Shown here piece by piece: positions 7,483 through 52,568 of a DNA stretch of 64,000 nucleotides. The stretch is from Candidatus Azotimanducaceae bacterium. GTDB lineage: Bacteria > Pseudomonadota > Gammaproteobacteria > Pseudomonadales > Azotimanducaceae. A model generated the notes under the pieces. It made no database searches, was not told the DNA's origin, and saw only the letters and a program-made list of their open reading frames with translations. The stretch spans positions 3,879,350-3,943,349 of the forward strand of contig OZ241900.1 of assembly GCA_965203615.1 (NCBI GenBank). The letters run 5' to 3'. The stretch's first letter is position 1, and each line of letters opens with the position of its first letter. A program made the position numbers and the translations under genes.

Positions 7483-8004
7483 TCACTTCGATTGGCCGTA
7501 TTCCTCTGCCGCGTCGGCGATCCAGCGCGACACGTAGTCCGCGTAGCTGCGGCGGAACACCAAGTCGAAACTGCCGTCCGCGTTCGCAGCGACCAGCGCG
7601 CCTGCCTGCGCGAACATGGTCTGCACACAGCGTCCTGGCGGAAAGTTCCGGGGATGAAAGTCGTAGGGACTGGATTTCTGCAGCACCTTTCCGGCGTCGT
7701 CGCCGGCAAGGTTCACGTGGACGAAGCCGCCGCTCACGTCCACGACGGAGAAGCGGCCAGGGGCCGACTCCCGTAGTTGTCGCTCGACCCTGGACTGCTC
7801 GCCAGCAGGCACGATCAGGAGCCACTCGTCCGGACCGAGCCAACAGGCGCTGGTTTCCCCAGCCTCGCACCGACTGCACGGCTCGGTCGGGAGGTCTATA
7901 CCGGTGACTCTCGAGACCGCATCGCGAAGATCCTCATCGCCGCGGAGATTCAGATATCCCCGCGATGGGAGTTCGCGAATCCCGACGCCGGGCTTTTCAG
8001 ACAT
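7483..8004 (-). CDS. soxG: Sarcosine oxidase gamma subunit
   Basis: 173 aa with 'LNLRGD...' and 'WLGPDEWLLIV' typical of SoxG. It overlaps the soxA stop by 8 nt. Confidence 0.85.
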   Translation of the reverse strand: MSEKPGVGIRELPSRGYLNLRGDEDLRDAVSRVTGIDLPTEPCSRCEAGETSACWLGPDEWLLIVPAGEQSRVERQLRESAPGRFSVVDVSGGFVHVNLAGDDAGKVLQKSSPYDFHPRNFPPGRCVQTMFAQAGALVAANADGSFDLVFRRSYADYVSRWIADAAEEYGQSK

Positions 8005-10999
8005 TCTGGCGCGCTCCTTCGGGGTCGTAGAAGACGGGGCTGACCACGGTCGCGGCGACGATCCGGCCGTCCGCCAGCGGGGCGTAGAGAATCTGCCCCG
8101 TGCGCTGGCGACCGCGCTTCACCATCGCCAGCGCGATGGAACGCTCAAGCCGCGCGCTGTAGTAGCTGGAGGTGACGTGGCCTTCCATGGGCACCGGCGC
8201 ACGGCGTCCGGGTTCTTCGACGAGTTGCGCGCCCTCGGGCAGCACGGTCTCGGGGTCGGCGGTGGCCAGGCCCACGAGCTGGAACCGGTCCTCGCGCAGG
8301 TGAGCGGCCAGCGCCAGCGAACGGTCGCCGAGGAAGCCGTACGCCTTGTTGCGGCGCACCGCCCAGTCCATGCCGACGTCCGCCGGTGTCACGGAACCGT
8401 CGGTGTCCTGGCCGACGATGATGAATCCCTTCTCGGCGCGCAGCACGTGCATGGCCTCGGTGCCGTAGGGGGTGATGTCGAATTTCGTTCCGGCCTCGAC
8501 CAGGGCATCCCAGACCTCTCGGCCGTGGTTGGCCGGGACGTTCACTTCGAACGACAGTTCGCCGCTGAAGCTGATCCTGAATACCCGCGCAGGTATGCCT
8601 GCGACGTGGCCTTCGCGCACATCCATGAAGTGGAACGCATCGCCGTCGAAGTCGATGTCCGTGCACAGCTTTCGAAGCACCTCCCGGGACTTCGGGCCGA
8701 CTACCGCCGCCGTGGCCCAGTGGTCGGTCACCGACGTGAGATGGACGTCGAGGGACGGCCACTCGGTCTGTTTCCAGAACTCCAGCCACGCGAACACCGC
8801 CTCCGCATTGCCGGTGGTGGTGTGCATCAGGTAGCGGTTCTCCGCCATGCGCGCGGTCACGCCGTCGTCGAAGATGTACCCGTTCTCGTGCAGCATGAGG
8901 CCGTAACGGCACCGGCCGACGCCGAGTCTCCTGAAACCGGTGGTGTATACGCGGTCGAGGAATACCGCCGCGTCCGATCCCTGGATGTCGATCTTGCCGA
9001 GGGTGGACGCATCGAAGATTGCGACACCGTCGCGCACTGCGAGGCACTCGCGATCAACCGCCTGCTGCATCGTCTCCCCGGATTGGGGGTAGTAGTGCGG
9101 GCGTTTCCAGCGCCCCACGTCCTCCCACATGGCGCCGTGGGCCTGGTGCCACGCGTGCATGGGCGTGTGGCGTTCGGGGTCGAACATGCCGCCGGTGTCT
9201 CTTCCCGCGGCGGCGCCGAAGGTCATCGGCGTGTAGGCGGGGCGGAACATGGTCGTGCCCGTGTCGGCGATCTCCTGTCCCAGGGCGCGGGCCAGGATCG
9301 CCACGCCGTTGACGTTGCCGAGCTTGCCCTGGTCGGTGCCGAAACCCAGCGCCGTATAACGTTTGACATGCTCCACGGACGTATAGCCTTCGCGGGCGGC
9401 AAGCTCGATGTCCGCGGCGGTGACGTCCGTTTGCAGGTCGACGAACTGCTTGGGGGCTCGGCTCACCGGCTTCCGGTGGGGTACGAGGTATAGGGCCCGG
9501 GACGGCGCCTCAAGTGACTCTCCCGTATCCGGAATGTCGAACGTGCGCCCGCCGTCGCCGAAACCGGCGCGAGACGCGGCCGTGGCACCTGCGGATGCGC
9601 CTTCCTTGATGCACTCCCGCAAGGGTCGGACGCCCGTGACCGCGCCGGCGCACATGCCGTGCTCTCCCAGATTGCCGGGCAGGAACGCGCTCGCCGTATC
9701 GCTCCAACGGGGCCTGATGCCGGTCTGCGAGCCGAGATGCAGCGTTGGACTCCAGCCGCCGGACACGGCGATCAGGTCGCATTCAAGCCGCCGCGAAGGA
9801 CCGGTCAGCGCGTCGCCCTCTGCGTCCAATGGCGCGATAACGGCGCCGCGAACCCGTCCGCGTCCGAGAGCTTCGATCACGCCATGGCCATCCATCACGT
9901 CGATGCCCGCTTCTTTCGCGGACTGGACCAGCGCGCCTGAGGGATCCTGCCGCGCGTCGACGACCGCAACGACTTCGCGCCCGGCCCGTTGCCAGTCCAT
10001 GGCCGTTCGGTAGGCGTCGTCGTTGGTGGTGAAAAGGACCAGCCTGTCGCCGGGCGCCACGGCGTACCGGTTGACGTAGGCGGAGACCGACGATGCCAGC
10101 ATGACGCCCGGCAGGTCGTTGTTGGCGAACACCAGGGGGCGCTCTATGGCGCCGGTCGCGAGCACCGCCTGGCGCGCGCGTACACGGTGCAGGCGTTGGC
10201 GTGAACCGCCGCCGTTCACGCTTCCCAGGTGATCGGTACGTCGCTCGAGGATCGTGAAGAAGTTGTGATCGTAGTAGCCGATGACCGTGGCGCGGGGCAG
10301 GAGTGTTACGTCCGCAAAGGACGAGAGTTCGGCGAGCGCGTCCTGCACCCAGTCGGTGCCGCTCCCGCCGCCGATGGTCTGGGACCTGGACAGGAGGCTG
10401 CCTCCGAACTCGGGCCGCTCGTCGGCGATCAGAACGCGGGCGCCGGCCCGAGCCGCTTCGAGCGCTGCGGCGAGACCCGCGGGACCGGCGCCGACCACCA
10501 GCACATCGCAGTGATGGTGCATCTTGTCGTAGGTATCCGGGTCGTGTCCGTTCGGCGCTTCGCCGAAACCGGCTGCGCGGCGCAACAGGCGTTCCCACGT
10601 CATCCACAGCCAGGGTGGCTGCATGAACGTCTTGTAGTAGAACCCCGCCGGCAGGAACCTGCTGAAGGCACCGACGAGGCGCTGCGGGCCGGACCGGGTC
10701 GACCGCGCTTCAAGTCCCTCGAACAGTTCCACCTCGGTGGCCCGCAGGTTCGGGACGCCGTGCGCTCCCTTTCCGAGATGCAGGATGGCGTTGGGTTCTT
10801 CCGGCCCGTGTCCGACGATGCCGCGCGGCCGCGCATACTTGAAGCTACGGGCTACGACATCGACGCCGTTCGCGAGCAGCGCCGAGGCCAGCGTGTCGCC
10901 GGCGTAGCCCTGCATGGCGCGGCCGTCGAACGAGAAGTTGAGCGCCCGGCTGCGATCGATCCGGCCGCCCTCGGCCAGGCGGCGTGGTTGCTCCGCCAT
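7997..10999 (-). CDS. soxA: Sarcosine oxidase alpha subunit
   Basis: 1000 aa. N-terminal 'FSFDGRAMQGYAGDTLASALLANG', nucleotide-binding 'VLVVGAGPAGLAAAL', and a C-terminal GcvT-like THF-binding domain. ATGA overlap with soxD. Confidence 0.9.
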   Translation of the reverse strand: MAEQPRRLAEGGRIDRSRALNFSFDGRAMQGYAGDTLASALLANGVDVVARSFKYARPRGIVGHGPEEPNAILHLGKGAHGVPNLRATEVELFEGLEARSTRSGPQRLVGAFSRFLPAGFYYKTFMQPPWLWMTWERLLRRAAGFGEAPNGHDPDTYDKMHHHCDVLVVGAGPAGLAAALEAARAGARVLIADERPEFGGSLLSRSQTIGGGSGTDWVQDALAELSSFADVTLLPRATVIGYYDHNFFTILERRTDHLGSVNGGGSRQRLHRVRARQAVLATGAIERPLVFANNDLPGVMLASSVSAYVNRYAVAPGDRLVLFTTNDDAYRTAMDWQRAGREVVAVVDARQDPSGALVQSAKEAGIDVMDGHGVIEALGRGRVRGAVIAPLDAEGDALTGPSRRLECDLIAVSGGWSPTLHLGSQTGIRPRWSDTASAFLPGNLGEHGMCAGAVTGVRPLRECIKEGASAGATAASRAGFGDGGRTFDIPDTGESLEAPSRALYLVPHRKPVSRAPKQFVDLQTDVTAADIELAAREGYTSVEHVKRYTALGFGTDQGKLGNVNGVAILARALGQEIADTGTTMFRPAYTPMTFGAAAGRDTGGMFDPERHTPMHAWHQAHGAMWEDVGRWKRPHYYPQSGETMQQAVDRECLAVRDGVAIFDASTLGKIDIQGSDAAVFLDRVYTTGFRRLGVGRCRYGLMLHENGYIFDDGVTARMAENRYLMHTTTGNAEAVFAWLEFWKQTEWPSLDVHLTSVTDHWATAAVVGPKSREVLRKLCTDIDFDGDAFHFMDVREGHVAGIPARVFRISFSGELSFEVNVPANHGREVWDALVEAGTKFDITPYGTEAMHVLRAEKGFIIVGQDTDGSVTPADVGMDWAVRRNKAYGFLGDRSLALAAHLREDRFQLVGLATADPETVLPEGAQLVEEPGRRAPVPMEGHVTSSYYSARLERSIALAMVKRGRQRTGQILYAPLADGRIVAATVVSPVFYDPEGARQNV

Positions 11000-11295
11000 C
11001 AGGGCGTGCTCTCTTCAGGCGCGTCCGGGTTCGGTACGCCGGCCGGATAGACGTCGAGAATCTCGTAGCTCACGGTGTCGCGCAGGACGTTGAAGTAGCG
11101 CCGGCAGCCAGCCGTGTGCACCCAGATCTCGCGGTGGGGTCCGCGCGGGTTCTTGCGGAAGTGCAGGTAGTCTCCCCACTCGGCATCGGACAACGCGGCG
11201 GGATCCGGCGGGCGGCGGATATGTGCCTCGCCGGCGTTGCTGAACTCCTCCTCGCTGCGCATCTCCCGGCAGTAGGGACAGCGTATCTGCAGCAT
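10999..11295 (-). CDS. soxD: Sarcosine oxidase delta subunit
   Basis: 98 aa starting '[18 protein letters not shown]', with the Cys-rich SoxD zinc motif continuing at '...HTAGCRRYF'. ATGA overlap with the soxB stop. Confidence 0.85.
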   Translation of the reverse strand: MLQIRCPYCREMRSEEEFSNAGEAHIRRPPDPAALSDAEWGDYLHFRKNPRGPHREIWVHTAGCRRYFNVLRDTVSYEILDVYPAGVPNPDAPEESTP

Positions 11296-12545
11296 CAGTG
11301 CGCTACTCCGGCGGCGCCGTGCTCGTCGATCAGCGCGCCGCTCGCGAAGCGGTCCAGCGCGAAAGGCTCCGCGAGAGGATGCGGCCGCTCGTGGGCGAGG
11401 GTGTCGGCGAACACGTAGCCGGACCCCGGCGTCGCCTTGAAGCCGCCGGTGCCCCAGCCGCAATTGAAGTAGAGCCCCTCGACGGGTGTCGTCCCGATGA
11501 TGGGGCAGGCGTCCGGGCAGATGTCGACGATGCCGCCCCACTGGCGGTTCATGCGTACGCGGCTGAAAGCCGGGAACAGCTCGCATACCGCGGACAGGGT
11601 GTGCTCGATGATGTGGAACGAACCGCGTTGGCCGTAGCCGTTGTAGTGGTCCGCGCCGGCGCCGATGACGAGGTCGCCCTTGTCCGCCTGGCTGATATAG
11701 CAGTGCACGGCGTTGGACATCACCACGGTGTCGAGACACGGCTTCAGCGGCTCGGACACCAGGGCCTGCAGGGGACGCGACTCTATCGGCAGCCGCAGCC
11801 CCGCCATCCCCGCCAGGACGCCGGAGTTGCCCGCGGTGACGCAGGCCACCTTGCGCGCCCCGATGAAGCCCCGGCTGGTCTCGACACCTTCAACGGCGCC
11901 GTTGTGGCAGCGGATGCCCGTGACCTCGGTCTGCTGCAGCAGGTCGACGCCGTGGGCGTCCGCCGCGCGGGCGAAACCCCAGGCCACCGCGTCGTGGCGG
12001 GCGATGCCGCCGCGCGGCTGCCAGGACGCGCCCATCACGGGATAGCGTGAATTCGGGGAGCAGTTGAGCAGGGGCACCCGCTTCTGCACCTGGGCGGTGG
12101 TGAGGATCTCGCCGTCGATGCCGTTCAGCCGGTTTGCGTTCACGCGCCGCTCGATGTCGCGCATCTCCTGCAGCGTGTGGCCGAGGCTCATCACCCCGCG
12201 CGGGCTGAACATCACGTTGAAGTTGAGTTCCTGGCTCAGGCCCTCCCACAGCGTGAGCGAGAAGTCATAGAGACGCGCCGCTTCGTCGCGCAGGTAGTTG
12301 GAGCGCACGATGGTGGTGTTGCGGCCGGTGTTGCCGCCGCCGAGGTACCCCTTCTCGACCACCGCGACATCGGTGACGCCGTGCCTGCTGGCGAGATAGT
12401 AGGCCGTCGCCAGACCGTGCCCGCCACCGCCCACGATCACCGTGTCGTAGCTCTCTTTCGGGGCCGGGTCGCGCCAGGCCCGCGGCCAGTCTTCATGGTG
12501 GCGACCGGCGTGCCGGAAGAGGCTCAGGAGAGAGTATTTTTCCAT
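11295..12545 (-). CDS. soxB: Sarcosine oxidase beta subunit
   Basis: '[20 protein letters not shown]' FAD site and overall SoxB-like sequence. I chose the internal ATG at 12545 (MEKYSLLSL). Confidence 0.9.
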
Positions 12546-12557
12546 GGGTTCGGCGTC

Positions 12558-12585
12558 TTGATCGCGGGGCGTATTTGACCATAAT
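12558..12585 (+). promoter_or_regulatory. Candidate sigma70-type promoter for the HD-domain gene
   Basis: TTGATC (12558-12563), 16 nt, CATAAT (12580-12585). It lies in the 74-nt divergent region between soxB and the HD gene. Confidence 0.3.
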
Positions 12586-12619
12586 TCGACAACCCAGGAC
12601 GGGTTCGAGGAGCACTCCA

Positions 12620-13279
12620 ATGAAGGCCCGAACCACCTTTAGCGGCACCGGCGGCGACGACGCAACCGACGCGTCGGATGCGGTCGCCCAGGCGTCGCAG
12701 ATCGTCACCTTCACCCGTATGGATCAGGGCACGGCAGAGGACTACGCGTTGCTCGACGCACTTGCGAAGCCGTACATCGCGAAGACCGGCGAACGCGTGC
12801 TCTCCTATCTCGAGAACATCGCGGACGGTTTTCCCGGGTACCCCATCGACCGCTACCGGCACTCGCTGCAGACGGCGACGCGGGCGTTGCGGGCCGGCGA
12901 GTGCGAGGAGTACGTCGTGGCCGCCCTGCTGCACGACATCGGCGACGACCTGTCGCCGGAGAACCACGCCGAGTTGGGTGCTTCGGTGCTGCGGCCCTAC
13001 GTTGCGAGGCACACCTATTGGATGGTGCTGCAGCATGGCCTGTTCCAGGGCTACTACTACTTCGACAAGATCGGGCTGGACCCCGACGCGCGCCTGCGTT
13101 ATCGCGACCATCCCGCCTTCGACATGACGGTGCACTTCTGCGACGCATACGATCAGCAGTCGTTCGATCCCGACTACGACACGCTTACCATCGATCACTT
13201 CGTGCCCATGGTCGAGCGCATCTTCGCACGCAAGCCGTGGGGCGCGCATACGACGCGGGACTGGCCGGTCGGGGACTGA
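12620..13279 (+). CDS. HD-domain protein, PhnZ/TmpB-like (possible mixed-valent diiron oxygenase)
   Basis: His/Asp ligand-like pattern 'RYRHSLQ', 'LLHDIGD', 'ENHAELG', 'LQHG', '[10 protein letters not shown]'. GAGGAG lies 7 nt before the ATG at 12620; the longer ORF starts at 12575. Confidence 0.65.
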
Positions 13280-13326: not shown

Positions 13327-13749
13327 CTAGCTGCCAGCCAGATCGAGTCTTGCCAGAGCCTTGGCGGGATTGACGATTTCGATATCGTCCGCATGTCCCA
13401 AGGCAAGCATGTCCGCCTTGTCACCGGACACGATCAAGTCCGCCTTGCCGGCTATCGCTGTTGCAAGTATTGGGTTATCTGCCGGGTCAGGTGAAAGCGT
13501 GCACTCCGGCAGCTCATGGATTAACGATCCGATAGTCTCCAGGTTGTCAATCAGATCGCGCGCCTCTTCCGACCGGATGTACGGGCTCAGTTTTTCGCGC
13601 CCGAGAACTTCCCGCAGTTCTTCAAGCTGATATTCGGAAGTCACGAGTGCCAAGTCACCGCGCTGGACCGCGGACAGCAGTTGTCCGGGTGGACCCGCGC
13701 TTGAAATCAAGGCGCTGATCAGCACATTGGTATCAAGAACGACCCGCAC
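13327..13749 (-). CDS. PIN-domain toxin (type II TA)
   Basis: 'MRVVLDTNVLISAL', '...DNPILATAIAGKADLIVSGDK' and PIN acidic residues. 140 aa. Confidence 0.8.
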   Translation of the reverse strand: MRVVLDTNVLISALISSAGPPGQLLSAVQRGDLALVTSEYQLEELREVLGREKLSPYIRSEEARDLIDNLETIGSLIHELPECTLSPDPADNPILATAIAGKADLIVSGDKADMLALGHADDIEIVNPAKALARLDLAGS

Positions 13750-14144: not shown

Positions 14145-16187
14145 TTAACCGGAGTTGGGGGGCTTGCGCCTCGAGCGCCGGCGTTGCGCCCGGGCTGGCC
14201 GGTCGGGGCCGTTGGCGGTGCGGCGCCTGACCCGGTCAGGGAATGCGTGCGTCCCGGCGGGTATCGCCATGGCGTCGACGAAGTACGCCTGGAAGTTCGA
14301 CTCGATGGCCGTCTCCACTTTCTCCACGCCCCTGACCACTGACTCGATCTCGTCGCGGGAAGCCCGGTTCAACAAGGCGATCCTGGCGCCGTGGCCGGCT
14401 GCGTTGCCTGCCGCCGAAACCGCATCGAGCGGGCAGTCCGGAATCATGCCGAGGGCCATGGCGTAGCGCACGTCGATGTGGCTGCCGAAGGCGCCGGCCA
14501 GGCGAATTCGATCCACCGAGGTCACTTCAAGCCGGTCCATCAGCAGCCTGATGCCGGCGAACAGGGCCGCCTTGGCGAGTTGAATCTGGCGCACATCGGT
14601 CTGCGTGACCGTGACCTGTTGGTCGTCCTGTTCGCCGTAGATGACGAAGGAGAAGGTGCGGCCATCGCGAAGCAGGCGAGGCGAGCGGTCCGCCTGGCTG
14701 CCGTCGATCACCCCGTCGCTGGTGAGGATGCCCGCCAGCCACATCTCCACTACCGCCTCGATGATCCCGGAACCGCAGATGCCGGTGACGCCCTGCGCCG
14801 GCAGTGCGTCGGCGAATCCCGGCTCATCTGACCAGAGATCCGAGCCGATTACGCGAATCCGGCTCTCAAGGGTGATGGGGTCGATCCGTACCCGTTCGAT
14901 GGCACCGGGCGCGGCGCGCTGGCCGGCGCTGACCTGGGCGCCTTCAAAGGCTGGGCCGGTCGGACTGGAGCAGGCCAGCAATCGCTGGCCGGTGCCGAGC
15001 ACGATTTCCGCATTGGTACCGATATCCACCAACAGGGTCACCGCCCCGTTCGCGTGGGGTTGCTCGCAGAGGATCATCCCGGCGGTGTCCGCGCCAACAT
15101 GCCCGGCGATGCAGGGCAGCACATAGGCTGCAGCGCCTGGGTTGGCCTCAAGGTCAAGGTCGCGGGCTGGCAAGTTGACGGCATCCTCCACAGCCAGCGC
15201 GAAAGGCGCCTCGCCCAGCTTCACCGGGCTGATGCCGAGCAGCAGGTGATGCATTATCGGGTTGCAAACGAACGTCAGGCTGAGGATGTCCTGCAGGTCG
15301 ACGCCGCCGTCCGCTGCGGTTCCGGCGACGAGTTCGTTGACGGCCCTGCGCACCTCCCGGGTCAGTTCGTCAGCGCCCTCGGGGTGCATCATGACGTAGG
15401 AGACCCGGCTCATCAGGTCCTCGCCGAAGCGGATCTGGGGATTCATCATGCCGTTCGAACAGAGCACGTCGCCGCTGCCGAGGTCGCACAGGTGGGCGGC
15501 GATGGTGGTTGATCCGACATCGATCGCCACACCGTAAACCGACTCCTTGAAACCTGGCCAGACCGCGAGAATGTCCGCGTCCTGGTGGACGGCGACCGTG
15601 ACCGACCATGCTCCGTCCCGCAGCAGGCCTTGCAGGTCGGGCAGCAACGCCGCCGGGAACGCGGGGCGCAGACCCCATTGCGCCTCCAACGCGTCGAGCA
15701 GGCGCGTCAGGTCGCTGCCCGAGCCCTGGAGATCCGCTGGCGCCACTTCCACCAGGTAGAGACGAACCACCGGATCCAGGCGGATGGGCCGCGAGTCGGC
15801 CTCCTTGCGCACGACTTGGCGGTGAACCTGGCTTTCCGGCGGCACGTCGATCAGCAAGTCACCTTGTATTGTGGCCTGGCAACTCAGCCGGTGGCCCGGC
15901 GCCAGCGGCCGGTTGCGCTCTCCAAAGCGGGTTTCCACGTCCCCGGCGGGGGACAGGTGATCGGGTTTGGAGACGATGCCGTGCTTGGGAAAGTTGCCTT
16001 CGCTGCAGACGACCCGGCAACGCCCGCAGAGTCCGCGGCCTCCGCAGATGGAGGCTATATCCACGCCGAGTTCCCACGCGGCTTGCAGCACCGGTGTGCC
16101 GTGTGGGAACTGGCCACGACGGCCGGACGGCGTGAAAACCACCCGGGCCTGGCGTTCGGTTTCCTCTTCCGTGCCGCGGGCAGTCAC
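14145..16187 (-). CDS. Reductive activator of corrinoid enzymes (N-terminal plant-type 2Fe-2S ferredoxin + ASKHA/DUF4445 ATPase domain)
   Basis: 'VVFTPSGRRGQF...ICGGRGLCGRCRV' is a ferredoxin motif, followed by a long ASKHA-like body ('AIDVGSTTIAAHL', 'LVDIGTNAEIVLG'). The start is set at GTG 16187. The ORF track extends to a TTG at 16316, overlapping the upstream gene by 124 nt. Confidence 0.8.
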   Translation of the reverse strand: MTARGTEEETERQARVVFTPSGRRGQFPHGTPVLQAAWELGVDIASICGGRGLCGRCRVVCSEGNFPKHGIVSKPDHLSPAGDVETRFGERNRPLAPGHRLSCQATIQGDLLIDVPPESQVHRQVVRKEADSRPIRLDPVVRLYLVEVAPADLQGSGSDLTRLLDALEAQWGLRPAFPAALLPDLQGLLRDGAWSVTVAVHQDADILAVWPGFKESVYGVAIDVGSTTIAAHLCDLGSGDVLCSNGMMNPQIRFGEDLMSRVSYVMMHPEGADELTREVRRAVNELVAGTAADGGVDLQDILSLTFVCNPIMHHLLLGISPVKLGEAPFALAVEDAVNLPARDLDLEANPGAAAYVLPCIAGHVGADTAGMILCEQPHANGAVTLLVDIGTNAEIVLGTGQRLLACSSPTGPAFEGAQVSAGQRAAPGAIERVRIDPITLESRIRVIGSDLWSDEPGFADALPAQGVTGICGSGIIEAVVEMWLAGILTSDGVIDGSQADRSPRLLRDGRTFSFVIYGEQDDQQVTVTQTDVRQIQLAKAALFAGIRLLMDRLEVTSVDRIRLAGAFGSHIDVRYAMALGMIPDCPLDAVSAAGNAAGHGARIALLNRASRDEIESVVRGVEKVETAIESNFQAYFVDAMAIPAGTHAFPDRVRRRTANGPDRPARAQRRRSRRKPPNSG

Positions 16188-16192
16188 CGGGA

Positions 16193-17125
16193 TCAGCTTT
16201 CTCGCGAGGGACCCCTTCGGGGGCCCGGCCGGCGGCGGCGGGGCCGGTCCCGCCGGTTGCCTCGCGCGCCCCCGGGGCCACCGGGTTCGCGATACTTGCC
16301 GATCCAGCGCATGCAATCTGGATCGTTGCCCATCATGACGTCGGCGCCGAGCACCGCCTGCATGACCCCGTCGTGCAGCGGGTTGGTGATCGCGGACGTC
16401 ATGCCGGCGCCGATCGCCATGGTGAGGAAGGCGCTGTTGATGCCGTTCCGGTTGGGCAGCCCGAAACTCACGTTGGACGCGCCGCAGGTGGTATTGACCT
16501 TCAGTTCCCCGCGCAGGCGGCTGACGAGATGCATGACCTGCCGACCGGCGGAGTTGATGGCGCCGATCGGCATGACCAGCGGATCGACCACCACGTCGCT
16601 CGGGGGAATGCCGTGGTCCTGCGCCCGTTCGACGATCTTCCTGGCCACCTCGAAGCGCACGTCCGGATCCTCGGAGATTCCGGTTTCGTCGTTGGAGATA
16701 GCCACCACCGCGGCGCCGTGCCGGGCCACCAGCGGCAGCACCGACTCCAGCCGCTCCTCTTCGCCGGTGACCGAGTTGACCAGCGGCTTGCCGTCATAGA
16801 CCGCGAGTCCCGACTCCAGCGCGGCGACGATGGAGGAATCGATGGACAGGGGCACGTCGGTGACCGACTGCACCAGCCTGATGGCCTCGGCCAGAATGGC
16901 GGGTTCGTCCGCCAGCGGGATGCCGGCGTTGACGTCCAGCATGTGGGCGCCGGCCGCGATCTGCGCGACCGCGTCGTCGACCACGCGGTGGTAGTCCCCG
17001 GCTTTCATTTCGCGGGCCAGGATCTTGCGCCCGGTGGGGTTGATACGCTCGCCTATGACCACGAAGGGCCGCTCGAAACCGATCACCACCTCCCGGCTCG
17101 CGGAAGCGACAACCGTGTCCGTCAT
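16193..17125 (-). CDS. Pterin-binding methyltetrahydrofolate:corrinoid methyltransferase (MtgA/AcsE/MetH-pterin-domain-like)
   Basis: 'VIGERINPTGRK...', 'MLDVNAG', 'PLSIDSS', 'PLVNSVTGEEERL', 'TTCGASNVSFGLPNR' are dihydropteroate-synthase-like barrel motifs. It ends in an odd Arg/Pro/Gly-rich tail of about 30 aa. Confidence 0.8.
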   Translation of the reverse strand: MTDTVVASASREVVIGFERPFVVIGERINPTGRKILAREMKAGDYHRVVDDAVAQIAAGAHMLDVNAGIPLADEPAILAEAIRLVQSVTDVPLSIDSSIVAALESGLAVYDGKPLVNSVTGEEERLESVLPLVARHGAAVVAISNDETGISEDPDVRFEVARKIVERAQDHGIPPSDVVVDPLVMPIGAINSAGRQVMHLVSRLRGELKVNTTCGASNVSFGLPNRNGINSAFLTMAIGAGMTSAITNPLHDGVMQAVLGADVMMGNDPDCMRWIGKYREPGGPGGARGNRRDRPRRRRPGPRRGPSRES

Positions 17126-17131
17126 GTCCCT

Positions 17132-17452
17132 TCAGCCCTCCCGCAGACCGTGATTGCGGATGAGCGCGAGCAGCCGCGCGTCGGAAAAATCCGTTTCGAT
17201 CTGCTCCGCCAGCCGGTCGGCGACCGCCTGCAGATCGGTCGCCGCATCGACCGGCTCGGGGGTGATCCGGTCACGCTCCCACTCGCTGATGTAGGCATCG
17301 GCGCTGCGCTTCTTTGCCCGCATGGCGGCGCGGTCAATGGCGTTCTGAAAACGTGGGCTCAACAGTACCTTGGCGCGTCTTCTGCCCTGCCTGACGATGA
17401 TCTGCGACGGAATGTCGCGCCATCTCATGAGGATCGCGTCCACGCGCGTCAC
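17132..17452 (-). CDS. Small 'virulence factor'-domain (PF13769-like) protein of unknown function
   Basis: 'WRDIPSQIIVRQGRRRAKVLLSPRFQNAIDRAAMR' matches my recollection of this small family, which is found next to DUF1638 and corrinoid genes. GTG start overlaps the upstream stop (GTGA). Confidence 0.5.
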   Translation of the reverse strand: MTRVDAILMRWRDIPSQIIVRQGRRRAKVLLSPRFQNAIDRAAMRAKKRSADAYISEWERDRITPEPVDAATDLQAVADRLAEQIETDFSDARLLALIRNHGLREG

Positions 17453-18264
17453 TCCTTTCGTTCGAGGGGTACCGCCTCGTGCTGCTGCTTTCTTTCGAGG
17501 GGTACCCCCTCGTGCTGCTGTTTTCTTTCGAGGGGTACCCCCTCGTGCTGCTGTTTTCTTTCGAGGGGTACCCCCTCGCGCTGCTGTTTTCTTTCGAGGG
17601 GTACCCCCTCGCGCTCCCCGGCGGCAAACCGGACGACTGCGGGTTCCAGTGCGCCGTAGCCGGTATGCACGTGGGTGAATTCGAGCCCCAGGCGGGACGC
17701 GGCCGCTCGGGCGTCGGCGAGCAGGTCCGGGTTCCGGGTCTGTGACAGGTAGGTCAGGCGCCGGTAGTTGCCGAAATACTCGTCGGACAGTTCCGGATGG
17801 TCGTCGATCTGCAGGGTTTCCACCACGAGCCGATCGAAGAAGCGCACGAGGAAGTCGGTGAGGTAGAACGTGCCGGGCTCGTCGTCGGCCATCCGCTCAA
17901 AGCGCTCGGTGCCGGCGAAGAACTCGTAGCAATGCAGCCCCGGCAGGCGCTCGACGCCCGGATAATCGGCGAGCACCTGGTCGATCCCGCCGTAGGTGCC
18001 GCAATCCGCATAGCCGATGAAGATGCGGCGATGCCGGCCCCGGGCCCGCTCGATCTCGGCGCGCAGCCGGGGCGGGATCTGGGCCGGACGGAGGTGCAGT
18101 TCCGGGTCCAGGCAACGGATGCGCAGGTGGTCCCAGCCGTTGGCCTGCCGAATCGCGTGCAGTTCCCTGCCGAGGGCGCCGCAAGCGATCACGAGCACGG
18201 GGTCCCGTTGCCTCTGCAGTTGCGCCTCGCTCGTGTCGCCGCGGATCACATCGGGGTTCAGCAT
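17449..18264 (-). CDS. DUF1638-domain protein with a repeat-encoded C-terminal tail
   Basis: 'VLVIACGALGRELHAI', 'IFIGYADCGTYGGID' and 'PGLHCYEFF' are DUF1638-like. The ATG at 18264 shares one base with the corrinoid-protein stop (TGATG). Confidence 0.7.
   Translation of the reverse strand: MLNPDVIRGDTSEAQLQRQRDPVLVIACGALGRELHAIRQANGWDHLRIRCLDPELHLRPAQIPPRLRAEIERARGRHRRIFIGYADCGTYGGIDQVLADYPGVERLPGLHCYEFFAGTERFERMADDEPGTFYLTDFLVRFFDRLVVETLQIDDHPELSDEYFGNYRRLTYLSQTRNPDLLADARAAASRLGLEFTHVHTGYGALEPAVVRFAAGEREGVPLERKQQREGVPLERKQQHEGVPLERKQQHEGVPLERKQQHEAVPLERKE
17455..17619. repeat. 33-bp tandem repeat x5, each unit with a GGGGTACCCC palindromic core
   Basis: 'TCGAGGGGTACC' recurs at 17462, 17495, 17528, 17561 and 17594, an exact period of 33. 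On the minus strand the units are in frame and encode (EGVPLERKQQH)n at the C-terminus of the DUF1638 ORF. Confidence 0.9.
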
Positions 18265-18986
18265 CAGTAGTTGTGCCTGGCACGCATCAGTTGCATGGCG
18301 GTATCCACTGCGGTGGCGGCATCCCGGCAATAGGCGTCCGCGCCCACCGCCTTGCCGAATTCCTCGTTCAGCGGCGCGCCGCCGACCAGCACGATGTAGT
18401 CGTCGCGGATGGATTGGGCCACCAGTTCGTCGATGACCACTTTCATATAAGGCATGGTGGTGGTCAGCAGGGCGGACATGCCGAGAATGTCCGGACTGTG
18501 CTCCTGCAGCGCCGCGAGGAAGTCCTCGACGCTGTTGTTGATGCCGATGTCCACGACGTCGAAGCCGGCACCCTCCATCATCATGCCGACCAGGTTCTTG
18601 CCGATGTCGTGAATGTCGCCCTTGACCGTGCCGATCACCATCTTGCCCACCGGCTTCGCACCTGTTTCGGCCAGCAACGGCCGCAGGACAGCCATGCCGC
18701 CCTTCATGGCGTTGGCGGCCAGCAGCACTTCGGGCACGAACAGGATGCCATCGCGGAAGTCGATTCCGACGATCGTCATGCCGCCGACCAGGGCGTCGTT
18801 CAGTACCTTGTCGGCGGCCCAGCCCCGCTCCAGCAGGATCTCCGTACCCTCGATGATTTCATCCCTGAGGCCGTCGTACAGATCGTCGTGCATCTGCTCG
18901 ACCAGCTCGTCGTCGTCGAGTTCGGAAAGGACAAGATCGTCGTCCTGCTCTCCGTTCACGTCTTGGTCGTGAACATCGTCGCTCAT
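18264..18986 (-). CDS. Corrinoid (cobalamin)-binding protein, MtgC/MtmC-like
   Basis: B12-binding motif 'GDIHDIGKN' (DxHxxG), '...MSALLTTT', 'GGAPL', and an acidic N-terminal cap-helix domain. Confidence 0.85.
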   Translation of the reverse strand: MSDDVHDQDVNGEQDDDLVLSELDDDELVEQMHDDLYDGLRDEIIEGTEILLERGWAADKVLNDALVGGMTIVGIDFRDGILFVPEVLLAANAMKGGMAVLRPLLAETGAKPVGKMVIGTVKGDIHDIGKNLVGMMMEGAGFDVVDIGINNSVEDFLAALQEHSPDILGMSALLTTTMPYMKVVIDELVAQSIRDDYIVLVGGAPLNEEFGKAVGADAYCRDAATAVDTAMQLMRARHNY

Positions 18987-19303: not shown

Positions 19304-20389
19304 TTACGATCCGGAGCGAAACTTCGAAGGCGAAATCCCGTTCCAGCGGATGAATGCGCGCCGAAAGCTCCTTTCGTCCGAATAGTCGAGTTCTTCGGCG
19401 ACTTCGCCAGCGAGGTGATCTTGAGACAACAGGCGCTTTGCGCGCGCGTTCAGGGCCCTTTGCCTGACCTCGTGAAAAGACGTGTTCGATTGCGCCAGGC
19501 GACGCCGCAAGGTCCTGGCGCTGAGATTGAGTTGCAATGCAAGCTCATTGGCCGACATGGTCTGTCTCGACATCAGGTCGATGACCCTGTCGACGATCGG
19601 AACGTTCGCGGGGGAAACCCTGAGATTGCGGTCAATCAGGTTGGCCACTTCCCAAAAGACAGCGTTTGGCCGGGGCAGGTCGGCGGCCCGGAGTCTCACT
19701 GGCAAGGCGGCGACGGAGTAGTCGTAGATCAGCGCGTAGTCCCTGCTTCCGTACGCGATCGGCACACCCCAGTACGCCAGTTGGTCAGGCGGACTGCCCG
19801 CGTGTTCGCGAGGATTGCTCAAAGGCCGCTTGGTCGTGACCTTGCAAAGGTATGCATCGATGTCGGCGCCGGCACAAATGCCGAACAGTGTGTGCATGAG
19901 TATCTGGATGCACTCGAGAAAACTGTGCAACTGGCTGGCCGTCAACTCGAACGGGGTGGGGAAGTCCTTGTTGTCGATGGCGTAGATCAGCTTGTCACCC
20001 TGCGTCGTTACGTGGTTGTAGACACGGCCGTGCAATAGATTGAAGCCGTCCGCGAACTTGCGAAGCATGAGGTCAAAGCGGTTCGAGGCAACTGCCTGGG
20101 ACATCACGAAGTGGAACGCGCCCGGCAACAGGGGCCGCTCTGACATTCGCACGATCTCGTCGCTGGTCAGATCGGCCAGTCTCCCGAGAAGCCTGAAGTA
20201 GTCGGAAACCGGCACGCGTTCCGATTCGTCGTTTTCACCCGTTCCATGGCGGCGTATTTCCCGCAATACGACGGCCAGATCGATACCACTGGACCTGGCA
20301 GCTCTTGCCAGCGGTTCAAACAGGGAGTTGTCCACGCAGGGAATGCCTGGCCCATTCGCCGAACCTGGATGGTCGCTGAAATCCGGCAT
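19304..20389 (-). CDS. AraC-family transcriptional regulator
   Basis: C-terminal HTH 'MSANELALQLNLSARTLRRRLA...' and 'LDYSDERSFRRAFIRWNGISPSKFR'. I chose the ATG at 20389; the longer ORF to 20773 would run into the divergent receptor gene. Confidence 0.75.
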   Translation of the reverse strand: MPDFSDHPGSANGPGIPCVDNSLFEPLARAARSSGIDLAVVLREIRRHGTGENDESERVPVSDYFRLLGRLADLTSDEIVRMSERPLLPGAFHFVMSQAVASNRFDLMLRKFADGFNLLHGRVYNHVTTQGDKLIYAIDNKDFPTPFELTASQLHSFLECIQILMHTLFGICAGADIDAYLCKVTTKRPLSNPREHAGSPPDQLAYWGVPIAYGSRDYALIYDYSVAALPVRLRAADLPRPNAVFWEVANLIDRNLRVSPANVPIVDRVIDLMSRQTMSANELALQLNLSARTLRRRLAQSNTSFHEVRQRALNARAKRLLSQDHLAGEVAEELDYSDERSFRRAFIRWNGISPSKFRSGS

Positions 20390-20528
20390 ATTCGTACAGT
20401 ACCACGGTGCTGGCCACAACTGTCCCCCCTGCCTGACCTGTTGTGTCATTGCGGAGCACCTCAAGCAGTCGTCAAATTCGGATTGGGGGAATGTTCGACC
20501 CGCTGCACGCATCGCGAGGAATTGCACC

Positions 20529-22850
20529 ATGGGGACCAGCAGTACAGTTCGCCGTATTCGACCGGTTGCCGTCTCGAGCGTTGTCGCAATCCTGGCTTTT
20601 CTCGATGCGAGTATTGTCTGTGTCGCCCAGGAGACGACAGGCGACGAGCAGGTCAACGCAATCGAGGAGATCATCGTCACCGCGCGCCGCAGGGAGGAGT
20701 CGCTATTGACCGTGCCGGGCTCGGTTTCGGCCTTCAGTGAACGCCGGCTTCGCGACCTGCAGGCGGCCGACATGCGCCAGGTGCAATACGCGGTGCCGAA
20801 CTTTCATTTTCAGAAAAGCGATTCGTCCAACGCTGCGGTCTACCTGCGCGGCATCGGTCAGAACGACTCTCTGCCTTTCGTCGAGTCGGGCGTCGGGGTC
20901 TACATCGACGACGTATATGTGGCGCGCACCCAGGCCGCTTTCGTCGAGTTGTTCGACATCGAACGCGTCGAGGTCCTGCGCGGGCCGCAAGGGACGCTGT
21001 ACGGGCGAAACTCCCCCGGAGGCGCCGTCAAGCTGATCACTCGCCAGCCATCCGACGAATTTGAAGCTCACGCGGAGGTTGGTGCCGGGAGTCTCAAGGC
21101 CAGGATTTACAAGGGCCGCATTGGCGGACCATTGAGTAGCGATGGCCGTTGGAAAGGGAAGATCGCGTTCTCTGGAATCAACCGCGACGGGCATTCCGAG
21201 AACGCGGTGCTCGGGGGCACCGACGGCGACACCAATACGCTGTCGTTCCGGACTGGCCTCGACTTCGAACCGAGCGACGATCTGAGTTTCGCGCTCCGCT
21301 TCGAAGGAAAATTCGAGCGGCCCGACCGGTCGCTGACACCGATTCGAAAGACGCCGCTCACACTGTTCCCGGACCCGGTTGGCGCTCCGTTCAGCCCGGT
21401 CACCTACCTGCCGACGGAGGAAGCTTTCGGTTCGCCCTATGTCGTCGAAGGCACGGCGAATGTCCTTGCCGACCTGACAACTTACGGGGCCTCGTTCAAG
21501 ATCAGGCGGTACATGGGTGATGCCTGGTATGTGGAGAGCGTTACGGCGTACCGCAAGCTCTCCTGGGATTTCGTTCTGGACGCCGACAGCACGCCGCATC
21601 CGGTCCTCGACATTCCGGTTTACGAGGACGACGATCAGTTTTCCACGGAGCTTCGGGTGGCGTTGGAACGCGATAGTGGCCTGTCGTTCACGGGCGGCGT
21701 TTTCTACTTCATCGACGATGATGTCGTGCTCGCGGGATTCGACGATGCGTCGGCATCATTCGAGTTCTTCGGACTCTTTTTCCCGATCATCAGCGTCGGA
21801 GTCCCATCGGGCGGATACGGCGAAAGCGACCAGCGCACGCGATCGGTCGCGGCATTTGGCGACATTACCTTTCCCATTTCGGATACGACGAGCGTGGAGA
21901 TTGGCGCCCGCTACACCATTGACGAGAAAGAAGTCACGCGGCGCGGCGAATTCTTCTTTGACCCGACGCTGTCCCTGAGTCTCGATCAGCCGCCGTTTCT
22001 GGCCGGTGTCGGGTTTCCCGGCGAGTACCTGCAGGACACCCAGGACTGGAATGCGGTGACACCACGCGCGGTCCTGTCGCACCAGCCAAACGACAGCCTG
22101 ACGCTGTACGCGTCGGTTTCCCGCGGCTTCAAGAGCGGCGGTTTCCCGGGGCGGGCATTTGCGGGTAGTGAGTTCAAGGCGTTTGATCCGGAAACGGTCT
22201 GGACCTTCGAGACGGGCATCAAGGGCCGCGATCCGGAAAACCGTTTCACCTACTCGGCCGCGTATTTCTACAACGACTACAACGACCTGCAGTTGAACGG
22301 CTTCGGACAGGATCCCGTGACCGGGCAATTTGTCAGCCTGTTCACCAACGCCGCGTCCGCGATCACTCGAGGTTGGGAGGGCGAGGTTTCTTACCGGCCC
22401 AGCCACCGTCTTTCGATCAACGCTTCAGTCGGATACCTGAATGCGGAATACGAGGAATTCGAGACGCTGGTCAACGGCGTGCTCACCGACGTCAGCTCGC
22501 GGCGTCTGCCGAATGCACCCGAGTGGACCGGCTTCCTTGGCATGACCTACTCGGATCAGCTCACCCCCGGCATCGCCGGAACCGTGCATGTCGATATCGC
22601 CTACAAGGGCGACCACGCGAACGAGTCGTCGGATTCTCCGAACCTCGCCGTGGCAGCGGCGACCTACCTGAACGCTTTCGTATCGATTTCAGCCAGTGAT
22701 CAGCGTTGGGAAGTGCGTGTGGGAGGTACGAACCTGACGGACGAGGCGCGCGCCGCCCAGAGTTTCAATACCGCGGAGTTCTCCGGCGTGGAGACTGCCT
22801 TTATGGGTGCTCCCCGTCTGTACGAAGTACGACTTCTACTGCAGATCTGA
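20529..22850 (+). CDS. TonB-dependent receptor
   Basis: Signal peptide 'VAVSSVVAILAFLDASIVCVAQE', plug 'IEEIIVTARRREESLLTVPGSVSAF', and a C-terminal beta-barrel ending '...LYEVRLLLQI'. I chose the ATG at 20529. Confidence 0.85.
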   Translation: MGTSSTVRRIRPVAVSSVVAILAFLDASIVCVAQETTGDEQVNAIEEIIVTARRREESLLTVPGSVSAFSERRLRDLQAADMRQVQYAVPNFHFQKSDSSNAAVYLRGIGQNDSLPFVESGVGVYIDDVYVARTQAAFVELFDIERVEVLRGPQGTLYGRNSPGGAVKLITRQPSDEFEAHAEVGAGSLKARIYKGRIGGPLSSDGRWKGKIAFSGINRDGHSENAVLGGTDGDTNTLSFRTGLDFEPSDDLSFALRFEGKFERPDRSLTPIRKTPLTLFPDPVGAPFSPVTYLPTEEAFGSPYVVEGTANVLADLTTYGASFKIRRYMGDAWYVESVTAYRKLSWDFVLDADSTPHPVLDIPVYEDDDQFSTELRVALERDSGLSFTGGVFYFIDDDVVLAGFDDASASFEFFGLFFPIISVGVPSGGYGESDQRTRSVAAFGDITFPISDTTSVEIGARYTIDEKEVTRRGEFFFDPTLSLSLDQPPFLAGVGFPGEYLQDTQDWNAVTPRAVLSHQPNDSLTLYASVSRGFKSGGFPGRAFAGSEFKAFDPETVWTFETGIKGRDPENRFTYSAAYFYNDYNDLQLNGFGQDPVTGQFVSLFTNAASAITRGWEGEVSYRPSHRLSINASVGYLNAEYEEFETLVNGVLTDVSSRRLPNAPEWTGFLGMTYSDQLTPGIAGTVHVDIAYKGDHANESSDSPNLAVAAATYLNAFVSISASDQRWEVRVGGTNLTDEARAAQSFNTAEFSGVETAFMGAPRLYEVRLLLQI

Positions 22851-23823: not shown

Positions 23824-23983
23824 TCACGCCTGACGCCCCGGCTCAAGACCCTCCGCGCAAACCCATGGTTTTCGCAGGCGGGGGTTTCAGGCCGACTTCC
23901 AAACGGCTGTCGCGTGCATATTGCATATCCACCCCAAATGCCGTGAGAATTCGGGCGGTGCCCATCCGCGGCCGGAGCATGCT

Positions 23984-26404
23984 ATGGAGAACCAGGCGCG
24001 CATTGTCATCGTCGGCGGCGGCATCATGGGCGTCGGCCTGCTTTACCACCTGGCGGCAGAGGGCTGCCGCGACGTCCTGCTGATCGAGAAGGGCGAGTTG
24101 ACGTCGGGCTCGACCTGGCACGCGGCTGGCCAATGCCCGAACCTGGTCGGCAACTACAACCTCGCCAAGATTCACGAATACAGCGTTTCCCTGTACCGGA
24201 AGCTGGAGCAACTGACCGGTCAGGCCGTCGGTTGGCATGGCTGCGGCAGCGTCCGATTCGCCCTCACCGAGGGGGACCTCGACTGGTTCCGCTACCTGCG
24301 CGGAATCGCCGCCAACGTCGGCTACCACATGGAGATCGTCGACGTGGAGAAGATCGCCAGGCTCAATCCCTTTGTCTCGACGGAAGGCGTGCTGGCCGGT
24401 GCCTGGACCCGTGACGACGGCCATGCGGACCCGTCCGGGCTTTGCCAGGCGATGGCCACTGGCGCGCGCGCAATGGGCGCCAGAATCGTGCGGAACAACC
24501 GCGTGACCGGCATCAATGCGCTGCCGCACGGCGAATGGGAACTGGTCACGGAACAGGGGTCCGTCATTGCGGAAACCGTCGTCAACGCCGCCGGTTGCTA
24601 CGCCCGGCAAGTGGCCCAGATGGTGGGAGCGGACCTTCCGATCTGCAACATTCAGCACCATTACCTGGTGTCCGGACCTGTGCCGGAACTGGCCGGACGA
24701 AGCGAAGAACTCCCCGTGACCCGCGATCCCTACGCCTCCGCCTACATGCGCCAGGAGCAGCAGTCCGGCCTGATCGGCATCTACGAGGCGGTGCCCGCCG
24801 AAGCCTGGCCGCCGGGCGGGCTGCCGCACTGGGACTCCGAAAGCGAACTGTTTACCGAAGATCTCGAGCGCCTTATGCCTTGGCTGGGGCGCGCTATGGA
24901 GCGCATGCCGGTGTTCGAGCCGGCGGGCATCCGGCGCACCGTCAACGGGGCCATCTCCCACAGCCCCGACGGGCTGCCGCTGCTCGGCCCCGTGGCCGGG
25001 CTGCGCAACTTCTGGCTCTGCTGCGGCTCGTCCTTCGGCATCGCCCAGGGTGCCGGCAGCGGCAAGTACCTGGCGCAGTGGATGCTGCACGGCGACTCCG
25101 AGATCAACATGACCGGCTTCGATCCCCGGCGCTTCGGCGTGTTCGCCGATGTCGAATACATGCGGGCCAAAGGTCGCCAGGACTACGGCAGGACCTATGC
25201 CACGGCGTTGCCCGGGGAAGAACTGCCGGCGGCCCGGGTTTGTCGGACCAGCCCCCTGTACGACAGGCTGAAGGCCCAGGGTTGCGTGTTTACCGAGACC
25301 TTCGGCTGGGAGCGGCCCAAGTGGTTCTCGCCGGACGGTCGCGAGGAACAGTACGGCTTTCGCCACAACAACGTGTTCGATCTGGTGCGCGAGGAGTGCC
25401 TGGCCGTGCGCGAGCGGGTCGGCATCCTGGACCTCTCGGGATTCGCGAAATACGACGTGACGGGCCCCGACGCGCGAACGATGCTGGATCGGCTGTGCGC
25501 CAACCGGGTACCGGGGCGCGGCCGTATCACGCTTACCCACCTGCTTTCCGAGGGCGGGCGCATCGGCGCGGAGGTCACCATCACCCGCCTCGAAGACGAC
25601 GGCTTTTACGTGCTTTCCGCTGCCGGCGCCGAGCTGCGCGACCTCGACCACCTGCAGCAGGGGCGGCGCCCGGGAGAGCAGGTCGACATCGAGAACGTTA
25701 CCGACCGGCGCGGCGTGCTGGTGCTGGCCGGACCGCACGCCCGAGACGTGCTTGCCAGACTGACGAATGCGCCCCTGGACAGCGGTACCTTTCGCTGGCT
25801 GACGGCCAAGGAAATCGACCTCGCGGGGATGCCGGTGCGGGCTCTGCGCGTCAACTATGTCGGCGAACTTGGCTGGGAACTGCACCCGGCCATGGAACAC
25901 ATGGAGGCGCTGTATGACGCGCTGGTGGATGCGGGGGCGGAACATGGCATTCGCAATTTCGGCCTCTACGCGGTCAACAGCCTGCGGCTGGAAAAGGCCT
26001 ACCGCAGTTGGGGCGCGGAGCTGACCAACGAAGTCACCATGTTCGATGCGGCCATGGATCGCTTCATCAAGCTCGACAAGGGCGACTTCATCGGCCGGGA
26101 AGCGACCCTGCGCTCCCTTCAGGAGGAGGACCGCCCGCTGCAGCTCATCTACTTCAGCCTCGACCCCGGCGACGCGGACGTGCAGGGGGGCGAGCCGATC
26201 TTCGCCGGCGACCGCTGCGTGGGGGTAACCACCTCCGGCGGTTACGGCCACGCGGTAGGTCAGAGTCTCGGCTTCGGCTATGTCCCGCCGTCGCTGGCCA
26301 GACCAGGCAACGGGTTGACGGTCGACCTGCTCGGGCAACGGCGGCAGGTGACCGTACACGAAGACCCGGTCTACGATCCGGCCAACCACCGCTTGCGCGC
26401 CTGA
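23984..26404 (+). CDS. Dimethylglycine/sarcosine dehydrogenase-family protein (FAD oxidoreductase + GcvT-like THF domain), paralogue 1
   Basis: 'IVIVGGGIMGVGLLYHLA...LTSGSTWHAAG' and a C-terminal aminomethyltransferase fold ('YVGELGWELH'). ATG at 23984. Confidence 0.85.
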   Translation: MENQARIVIVGGGIMGVGLLYHLAAEGCRDVLLIEKGELTSGSTWHAAGQCPNLVGNYNLAKIHEYSVSLYRKLEQLTGQAVGWHGCGSVRFALTEGDLDWFRYLRGIAANVGYHMEIVDVEKIARLNPFVSTEGVLAGAWTRDDGHADPSGLCQAMATGARAMGARIVRNNRVTGINALPHGEWELVTEQGSVIAETVVNAAGCYARQVAQMVGADLPICNIQHHYLVSGPVPELAGRSEELPVTRDPYASAYMRQEQQSGLIGIYEAVPAEAWPPGGLPHWDSESELFTEDLERLMPWLGRAMERMPVFEPAGIRRTVNGAISHSPDGLPLLGPVAGLRNFWLCCGSSFGIAQGAGSGKYLAQWMLHGDSEINMTGFDPRRFGVFADVEYMRAKGRQDYGRTYATALPGEELPAARVCRTSPLYDRLKAQGCVFTETFGWERPKWFSPDGREEQYGFRHNNVFDLVREECLAVRERVGILDLSGFAKYDVTGPDARTMLDRLCANRVPGRGRITLTHLLSEGGRIGAEVTITRLEDDGFYVLSAAGAELRDLDHLQQGRRPGEQVDIENVTDRRGVLVLAGPHARDVLARLTNAPLDSGTFRWLTAKEIDLAGMPVRALRVNYVGELGWELHPAMEHMEALYDALVDAGAEHGIRNFGLYAVNSLRLEKAYRSWGAELTNEVTMFDAAMDRFIKLDKGDFIGREATLRSLQEEDRPLQLIYFSLDPGDADVQGGEPIFAGDRCVGVTTSGGYGHAVGQSLGFGYVPPSLARPGNGLTVDLLGQRRQVTVHEDPVYDPANHRLRA

Positions 26405-26410
26405 CGATTC

Positions 26411-51572: not shown

Positions 51573-52568
<996 letters not shown>

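Follow-up and report, generated by a model that had tools for sequence, protein, structure and literature searches.

The locus described here raises two questions: how an oxygen-sensitive Co(I) corrinoid cycle is maintained in a bacterium whose neighbouring genes encode oxygen-dependent enzymes, and what two conserved proteins of the families DUF1638 and PF13769 contribute to it. The locus is a cluster of five minus-strand genes at 14145–18986 of a 64,000-nt stretch of contig OZ241900.1 (assembly GCA_965203615.1) from a Candidatus Azotimanducaceae bacterium; the whole stretch is called the window below. An earlier note on this DNA had described the cluster as a support module for corrinoid-dependent methyl transfer. 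From domain content, published aerobic counterparts, window context, and conserved synteny, we propose that the operon supplies the core and the repair components of an aerobic MtgBCD-type pathway demethylating glycine betaine or a related quaternary amine, with DUF1638 and PF13769 as accessory proteins. The probability of this reading is put at about 0.72.

Five open reading frames (ORFs) were found on the minus strand where they had been reported, and when the profile searches were run all the domains assigned to them scored above the Pfam gathering thresholds. In the order of transcription, they encode an MtgC-type corrinoid protein of 240 residues (18264–18986; PF02607 B12-binding_2, E = 7.5e-16, and PF02310 B12-binding, E = 2.7e-27), a DUF1638 protein of 271 residues (17449–18264; PF07796, E = 2.8e-26, the domain covering residues 1–216), a small protein of 103 residues belonging to PF13769, a family named "Virulence_fact" (17132–17443; E = 1.6e-18; GTG start), an MtgD-type methyl-tetrahydrofolate (methyl-THF):corrinoid methyltransferase (MeTr) of 310 residues (16193–17125; PF00809 Pterin_bind, E = 1.5e-30), and a RACo/RamA-type ATP-dependent reductive activator (14145–16187; PF00111, PF17650, PF17651, and PF14574, with E values down to 7.6e-85). 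The corrinoid protein, with a cap and a B12-binding domain, is acidic (isoelectric point [pI] 4.1) and its translation holds the DxHxxG motif as GDIHDIGKN. Looking up its exact sequence retrieved no contig. Its top NCBIfam matches were MtgC models, though under their cutoffs; it is 86–96% identical in relatives and, by estimate, about 75% similar to the S. meliloti and Paracoccus proteins. MeTr scored 359 bits (cutoff 259) against NF005719, the NCBIfam model for the methyl-THF:corrinoid methyltransferase domain. It ends in a polybasic C-terminal tail, RGNRRDRPRRRRPGPRRGPSRES (window 16193–16290), of which the portion RGNRRDRPRRRR is kept in close relatives. In the activator, all four domains, namely Fer2 ([2Fe-2S]), RACo linker, middle, and C-terminal ASKHA, were detected with Pfam, and the NCBIfam AcsV "exception" model gave 331 bits against a cutoff of 800; judged by these scores, the protein is a relative of AcsV, not an AcsV equivalog. 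As had been recognised, three-component methyltransferases have a corrinoid protein, a MeTr, and an activator as their standard accessory set. RACo/RamA serves to repair oxidised Co(II).

The operon is very compact. The start/stop overlap described between the first two genes was observed, the corrinoid stop and the DUF1638 ATG sharing TGATG, and this is the sole true overlap; the remaining three junctions turned out to be spacers of 5 nt (DUF1638/PF13769), 6 nt (PF13769/MeTr), and 5 nt (MeTr/RACo). The letters GTGA reported at the DUF1638/PF13769 junction are present, and the PF13769 start was placed at the next GTG (17443), which is preceded by AGGAG, and not at 17452, because homologues are 98–103 residues long and the protein called in the closest relative has 103 residues. 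Nor does RACo begin at 16316; judged from relatives, GTG at 16187 is the likely start. The usual RACo ATG of relatives reads ACG in the window and ATA in the close relative L043 (window 16181–16195), and in both a GTG is retained five codons upstream, at 5 nt past the MeTr stop. In another close relative, the RACo gene call begins 5 nt after the MeTr stop, which fits a GTG start. A promoter and terminator scan gave background levels, no cobalamin riboswitch was found in the window when looked for, and a PHROGs scan was uninformative.

A substrate methyltransferase is the component missing from the operon. Searching the window with tblastn showed a sole MttB-family gene at 31836–33377 (minus strand; PF06253, E = 6.8e-107), as had been stated. 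It encodes a non-pyrrolysine MttB-superfamily (MtgB-like) substrate:corrinoid methyltransferase, the ORF of 513 residues being continuous and without in-frame stop. A pyrrolysine-type trimethylamine methyltransferase was rejected, as there is no in-frame UAG and TIGR02369 scored 310 bits against an equivalog cutoff of 525. A match to Rfam PYLIS_3 inside the coding sequence (32240–32339, minus strand; 42.9 bits, gathering score 38) is probably due to homology of the coding sequence rather than to a functional element. Among solved proteins, the closest relative is MtgB, the D. hafniense glycine betaine methyltransferase (E = 5e-56). In about 30 relatives, orthologues 84–92% identical lie directly after RACo, or after MeTr/PF13769 where RACo is non-local; directly behind RACo they were seen in about 20 related genomes. 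These adjacent orthologues indicate that the 13-kb separation in the window is a local rearrangement, and they bear out the gene as the presumed cognate partner of the operon. The position directly downstream of RACo, which is occupied by MttB in many relatives, holds a PIN-domain (VapC-like) gene in the window (13327–13749, minus strand) that may mark the rearrangement breakpoint. In four Pseudomonadales metagenome-assembled genomes (L028, L031, L034, and L042), a divergent MttB-family gene, 25–26% identical to that of the window, replaces MtgC directly upstream of DUF1638-PF13769; a corrinoid gene was not detected locally in these four.

Systems of this kind have been described in aerobic bacteria. 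In Phaeobacter inhibens, separate B12-, pterin-, and homocysteine-binding proteins make up a split methionine synthase, and a RamA-like protein and DUF1638 are both required, DUF1638 mutants being methionine auxotrophs; the phyletic pattern of DUF1638 matches the one seen for the RamA-like protein across Alphaproteobacteria, and DUF1638 was left without a proposed function (Price et al. 2018, PMC5764234). In Ruegeria pomeroyi, an aerobic glycine-betaine demethylase consisting of MtgB/MtgC/MtgD with RamA and DUF1638 was reported, in which RamA and DUF1638 are induced on betaines and DUF1638 is labelled B12 reactivation; in Alpha-, Gamma-, and Deltaproteobacteria the genes of the system are often clustered with those for later demethylation and one-carbon (C1) oxidation (Mausz et al. 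2025, PMC12478193). The statement in the earlier note that neither DUF1638 nor PF13769 had an assigned role was therefore wrong for DUF1638, given the auxotrophy (PMC5764234) and the induction and reactivation label (PMC12478193). No papers citing the accession PF13769 were found in the literature searched, nor was a mention of the gene found in Mausz et al. 2025 (PMC12478193). The uncharacterised R. pomeroyi gene SPO1861, a possible PF13769 member, is induced on betaines and adjoins metF2/mtgD (PMC12478193). The upkeep of Co(I) in an aerobe, posed earlier as an open paradox, is answered in outline by the same modular system being genetically shown to work in aerobic marine bacteria (PMC12478193), together with repair by the ATP-dependent activator.

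The window resembles the R. pomeroyi system in its non-pyrrolysine MttB, corrinoid protein, MeTr, RamA/RACo activator, and DUF1638, and in the co-location of dimethylglycine/sarcosine demethylation and folate C1 oxidation genes. It differs in having the five core genes together in a single compact operon and not dispersed, in the move of MttB, and in showing no MtgE gene within the window. With the split methionine synthase of P. inhibens it shares DUF1638 and a RamA-like activator accompanying B12- and pterin-binding pieces, whereas that system was interpreted as serving methionine synthesis only and PF13769 was not noted. MtgBCA of D. hafniense and the MttB-superfamily systems of Eubacterium limosum and methanogens have the three-component logic and a RamA-type activator in common with the window, but these organisms are anaerobes, with corrinoid proteins that fall in another clade (Mausz et al. 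2025, PMC12478193). The CoFeSP activator RACo of Carboxydothermus hydrogenoformans has the same four-domain architecture as the window activator; the latter is accompanied by a small MtgC-type corrinoid protein in place of CoFeSP, and by DUF1638 and PF13769.

The window, with a GC content of about 65%, is a betaine and C1 catabolic island. Pfam searches confirmed the nearby oxidases and oxygenases reported before, namely SoxB/A/G, a Baeyer-Villiger-like flavin monooxygenase, a Rieske oxygenase, and PhyH. The genes for a heterotetrameric sarcosine oxidase (SoxB, SoxA, and SoxG found by Pfam) are at 7483–12620 (minus strand). Pfam and NCBIfam showed two DAO-FAO_M-GCV_T dehydrogenases of the dimethylglycine/sarcosine dehydrogenase (DMGDH) type at 23921–28858 (plus strand), and a third DAO-FAO_M-GCV_T dehydrogenase identified by Pfam, at 33433–35865 (minus strand), adjoins MttB. 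At 36714–39281 (minus strand), a single uninterrupted ORF of 855 residues encodes a divergent MetF2-like methylene-THF reductase joined to a complete formate-THF ligase (Pfam MTHFR weak; FTHFS, E = 8.5e-237). Its MetF2-like part is 34% identical (E = 4e-50) to a Pseudorhodobacter gene located between PF13769 and MeTr, and the relative L041 matches the ligase part only; the ORF may be a genuine fusion or the product of a lost stop codon. This protein belongs to C1 oxidation downstream of methyl-THF. Further genes of the window include those for a DmdA/GcvT-like protein, TonB receptors, and C1-folate enzymes. An HD-domain protein (12575–13279, plus strand) had weak partial matches to TmpB/PhnZ-type phosphonate oxygenases, far under the cutoffs, and with the PhyH dioxygenase at 50663–51607 (minus strand) it could hint at breakdown of trimethyl-aminoethylphosphonate to glycine betaine.

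A five-step cycle is proposed from homology and the published genetics of related bacteria. The MtgB-like MttB protein would methylate Co(I) on MtgC, and the pterin-binding MtgD would hand the methyl group to tetrahydrofolate, where the MetF2-like::Fhs protein and other folate enzymes would oxidise it. The remaining methyl groups would be stripped by the three DMGDH-type enzymes and sarcosine oxidase, and Co(I) oxidised to Co(II), a frequent event in an aerobe, would be re-reduced by RACo/RamA with ATP. The Sox, DMGDH-type, and folate C1 genes of the window lend context support to glycine betaine demethylation by this putative system.

The strongest of the competing explanations, which we nevertheless hold to be doubtful, is that the module works, mainly or in addition, as a split cobalamin-dependent methionine synthase, with MtgC and MtgD running in reverse together with a separate homocysteine methyltransferase, MtgE, as in Phaeobacter and Ruegeria. 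Methionine auxotrophy was seen in roseobacter mutants of mtgC, mtgD, the RamA-like gene, and DUF1638 (PMC5764234, PMC12478193), and about 70% of the marine genomes bearing MtgBCD are without MetH (PMC12478193). On the other hand, the homocysteine methyltransferase domain (PF02574) was not found among roughly 45 ORFs scanned, all of them in the window, the operon is placed in a betaine and C1 catabolic island, and MttB is the last gene of the operon in close relatives; MetH or MtgE may still be encoded elsewhere in the genome.

Whether the two accessory genes belong to this system was examined by comparison of gene order. A PF13769 profile search of contigs from one genome per species yielded 244 relatives, and in the best 80 loci the neighbours were typed by tblastn with the window proteins. 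The gene directly upstream of PF13769 was DUF1638 in 69 loci and MtgC in 8, together 77 of 80. The arrangement MtgC-DUF1638-PF13769-MetV-MetF-MeTr-RACo was observed in 20 loci, MtgC-DUF1638-PF13769-MeTr-RACo in 16, and the latter followed by MttB in another 16. The operon recurs across Gamma-, Alpha-, and Betaproteobacteria and is widespread, its carriers including sponge- and soil-associated Gammaproteobacteria, Rhizobiales, Rhodospirillales, and Rhodocyclaceae; the nearest relatives of the window are sponge- or environment-derived metagenome-assembled genomes of Pseudomonadales or "Ca. Azotimanducaceae". A complete eight-gene operon with overlapping stops and starts was also present on an independent metagenome contig, for which separate gene calls exist. 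Of 66 loci with sufficient flank, 54 had both DUF1638 and RACo, 6 had neither, 6 had DUF1638 alone, and none had RACo alone; these counts (60/66 concordant) extend the observation of Price et al. PF13769 was recovered solely from Proteobacteria-labelled records, and every genomic context seen was a corrinoid/folate operon of environmental bacteria; the name "virulence factor" appears to be a misnomer, without support in the contexts seen.

In one lineage, DUF1638 and PF13769 are encoded as a clean fusion of 344 residues, joined by a low-complexity linker of about 55 residues; the fusion gene had the same nucleotide sequence in two sequencing runs, and an overlapping RACo gene comes after it. 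A second apparent fusion (P0499) looks frameshifted and was set aside. Another sequence, P0490, combines DUF1638 with a DAO protein. On the evidence of gene order and fusion, PF13769 is part of the system, with DUF1638 as its probable contact.

It is possible, if rather unlikely, that PF13769 instead belongs to the methyl-THF branch, working with MeTr and with the reductases MetV/MetF or MetF2, outside corrinoid reactivation. Its downstream neighbours in the 80 loci were MeTr (n = 37), a MetV-like MTHFR_C gene (n = 23), MTHFR (n = 4), a MetF2-like gene (n = about 8), and MttB (n = 3). In the annotated record of S. meliloti, PF13769 heads the MetV-MetF-MeTr-RACo genes, overlapping the MetV-like gene, 2.3 kb from MtgC-DUF1638, and in Pseudorhodobacter it accompanies a MetF2-like gene and MeTr only, with none of DUF1638, MtgC, and RACo within 9 kb. 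Against this explanation are the fusion to DUF1638 with RACo next to it, three loci reading MtgC-PF13769-MttB with no MeTr nearby, and the window operon itself, which has no reductase gene adjoining PF13769. The S. meliloti locus (L081) also has a 112-residue hypothetical gene without Pfam match between MeTr and RACo (15052–15390), which may be a further lineage-specific small accessory protein.

The DUF1638 protein scored 92.7 bits against its Pfam model (gathering cutoff 27), and the family contains 1930 clusters at 50% identity. In a set of 41 sequences with 37–57% identity, C28, C88, and C112 were invariant (41/41) and H57 was kept in 40; D87, H111, T136, and D137 were likewise conserved, whereas the fourth cysteine of the window protein, C51, was kept in just 23. 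The AlphaFold2 model (predicted local distance difference test [pLDDT] 85) has two alpha/beta lobes, and C28, H57, C88, and C112 each lie just past a predicted beta-strand of the first lobe, a placement that suits a Cys3-His metal site. The conserved residues suggest that DUF1638 carries a candidate site of this type, for Zn or Fe-S, and the protein would act with RACo in reactivation. Single-sequence and profile searches of the PDB with DUF1638 gave nothing below E = 0.03, and a Foldseek search of the PDB with the model gave no match at E ≤ 0.001, only generic two-lobe alpha/beta matches with template modelling (TM) scores below 0.4.

At its 3' end, the DUF1638 gene contains an in-frame 33-bp tandem repeat (17456–17615; 4.8 copies, 96% matches by TRF), which encodes the C-terminal tail (EGVPLERKQQH)n directly before the PF13769 start. 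The repeat core GAGGGGTACCCCCTCG had five matches in the repeat (one copy with one mismatch) and a single match, with two mismatches, elsewhere in the window; a near-palindromic core, GAGGGGTACCCCCTC, is also contained in the repeat. Relatives carry 0–3 copies, and the length of the DUF1638 tail is thus variable. The DUF1638::PF13769 fusion, which is from a different lineage, has its low-complexity linker at the position of the repeat tail.

The PF13769 protein scored 67.2 bits (gathering cutoff 25), and the homologues listed are all single-domain proteins of about 97–125 residues. It is bipolar, the N-terminal half being basic (pI 12) and the C-terminal half acidic (pI 4.4). Conservation is high over the first 55 residues and strong in the core WRDIPxQ...GR...RFxxAxDRAAMRA. 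The AlphaFold2 model (pLDDT 93; predicted TM score 0.83) has a beta3-alpha-beta-alpha2 arrangement, for which Foldseek gave no PDB match at E ≤ 0.001 (best E = 0.94); single-sequence and profile searches of the PDB gave nothing below E = 0.03. An acidic MtgC N-terminus that tracks the presence of PF13769 was considered and rejected, since Paracoccus, which is without PF13769, has the same N-terminus. The PF13769 protein would be a small bipolar subunit or adaptor docking on DUF1638 and/or the MtgC-MtgD pair, and no virulence factor. The small size, the conserved first 55 residues, and the very basic N-terminal half would also suit a nucleic-acid-binding regulator of the operon that is no enzyme subunit; this is improbable, as no helix-turn-helix or ribbon-helix-helix match was found for the protein in Pfam or the PDB, the gene lies within the translationally coupled operon and not at its head, one lineage has it fused to DUF1638, and a dedicated AraC-type (HTH_18) regulator (19304–20773, minus strand; PF12833; start codon uncertain) is already present directly upstream of the operon. 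That the two genes are unrelated passengers, adjacent by chance, is effectively refuted by their adjacency in 77 of 80 loci over three proteobacterial classes and by the published cofitness and induction of DUF1638 (PMC5764234, PMC12478193), and the view of the earlier note that both are functional parts of the system was upheld by this co-occurrence and, for DUF1638, by the published genetics. The particular roles suggested there, such as corrinoid loading, oxygen protection, or assembly, are conjectural.

Several observations weigh against the proposed pathway and the parts given to its accessory proteins. The window MttB is about 35% identical to MtgB, as estimated from the alignment, and the assignment of its substrate is presumed. 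Paracoccus aminovorans has an otherwise identical operon without PF13769, so that, by gene content, PF13769 is not universally required. In eight loci PF13769 stands directly behind MtgC with no DUF1638 between them, and seven to eight loci keep PF13769 with MtgC though DUF1638 and RACo are not local; these patterns and that of Pseudorhodobacter single out no one partner of PF13769. The clean fusion to DUF1638 was seen just once. For the candidate metal site, the argument is from conservation only, and the roles of both accessory proteins are inferred.

Recent work recognised that cobalamin-dependent betaine demethylation is a major route by which aerobic marine bacteria turn over osmolytes and make methionine, in which the upkeep of the oxygen-labile cofactor is outlined only, as RamA plus an uncharacterised DUF1638. 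The window holds no new system, and the papers of 2018 and 2025 have largely overtaken the novelty claimed in the earlier note; the new handles are the candidate metal site of DUF1638, PF13769 as a second conserved accessory protein, and the natural DUF1638::PF13769 fusion next to RACo. More speculatively, and with the odds against it, DUF1638, PF13769, and RACo might form a machine of three proteins that reactivates small corrinoid proteins in bacteria exposed to oxygen, in which DUF1638, as a Cys3-His metalloprotein (Fe-S or Zn), would deliver or gate the electron to the [2Fe-2S] domain of RACo and PF13769 would tether the machine to MtgC/MtgD. If true, B12 repair would gain two components that have gone unrecognised and are mechanistically required.

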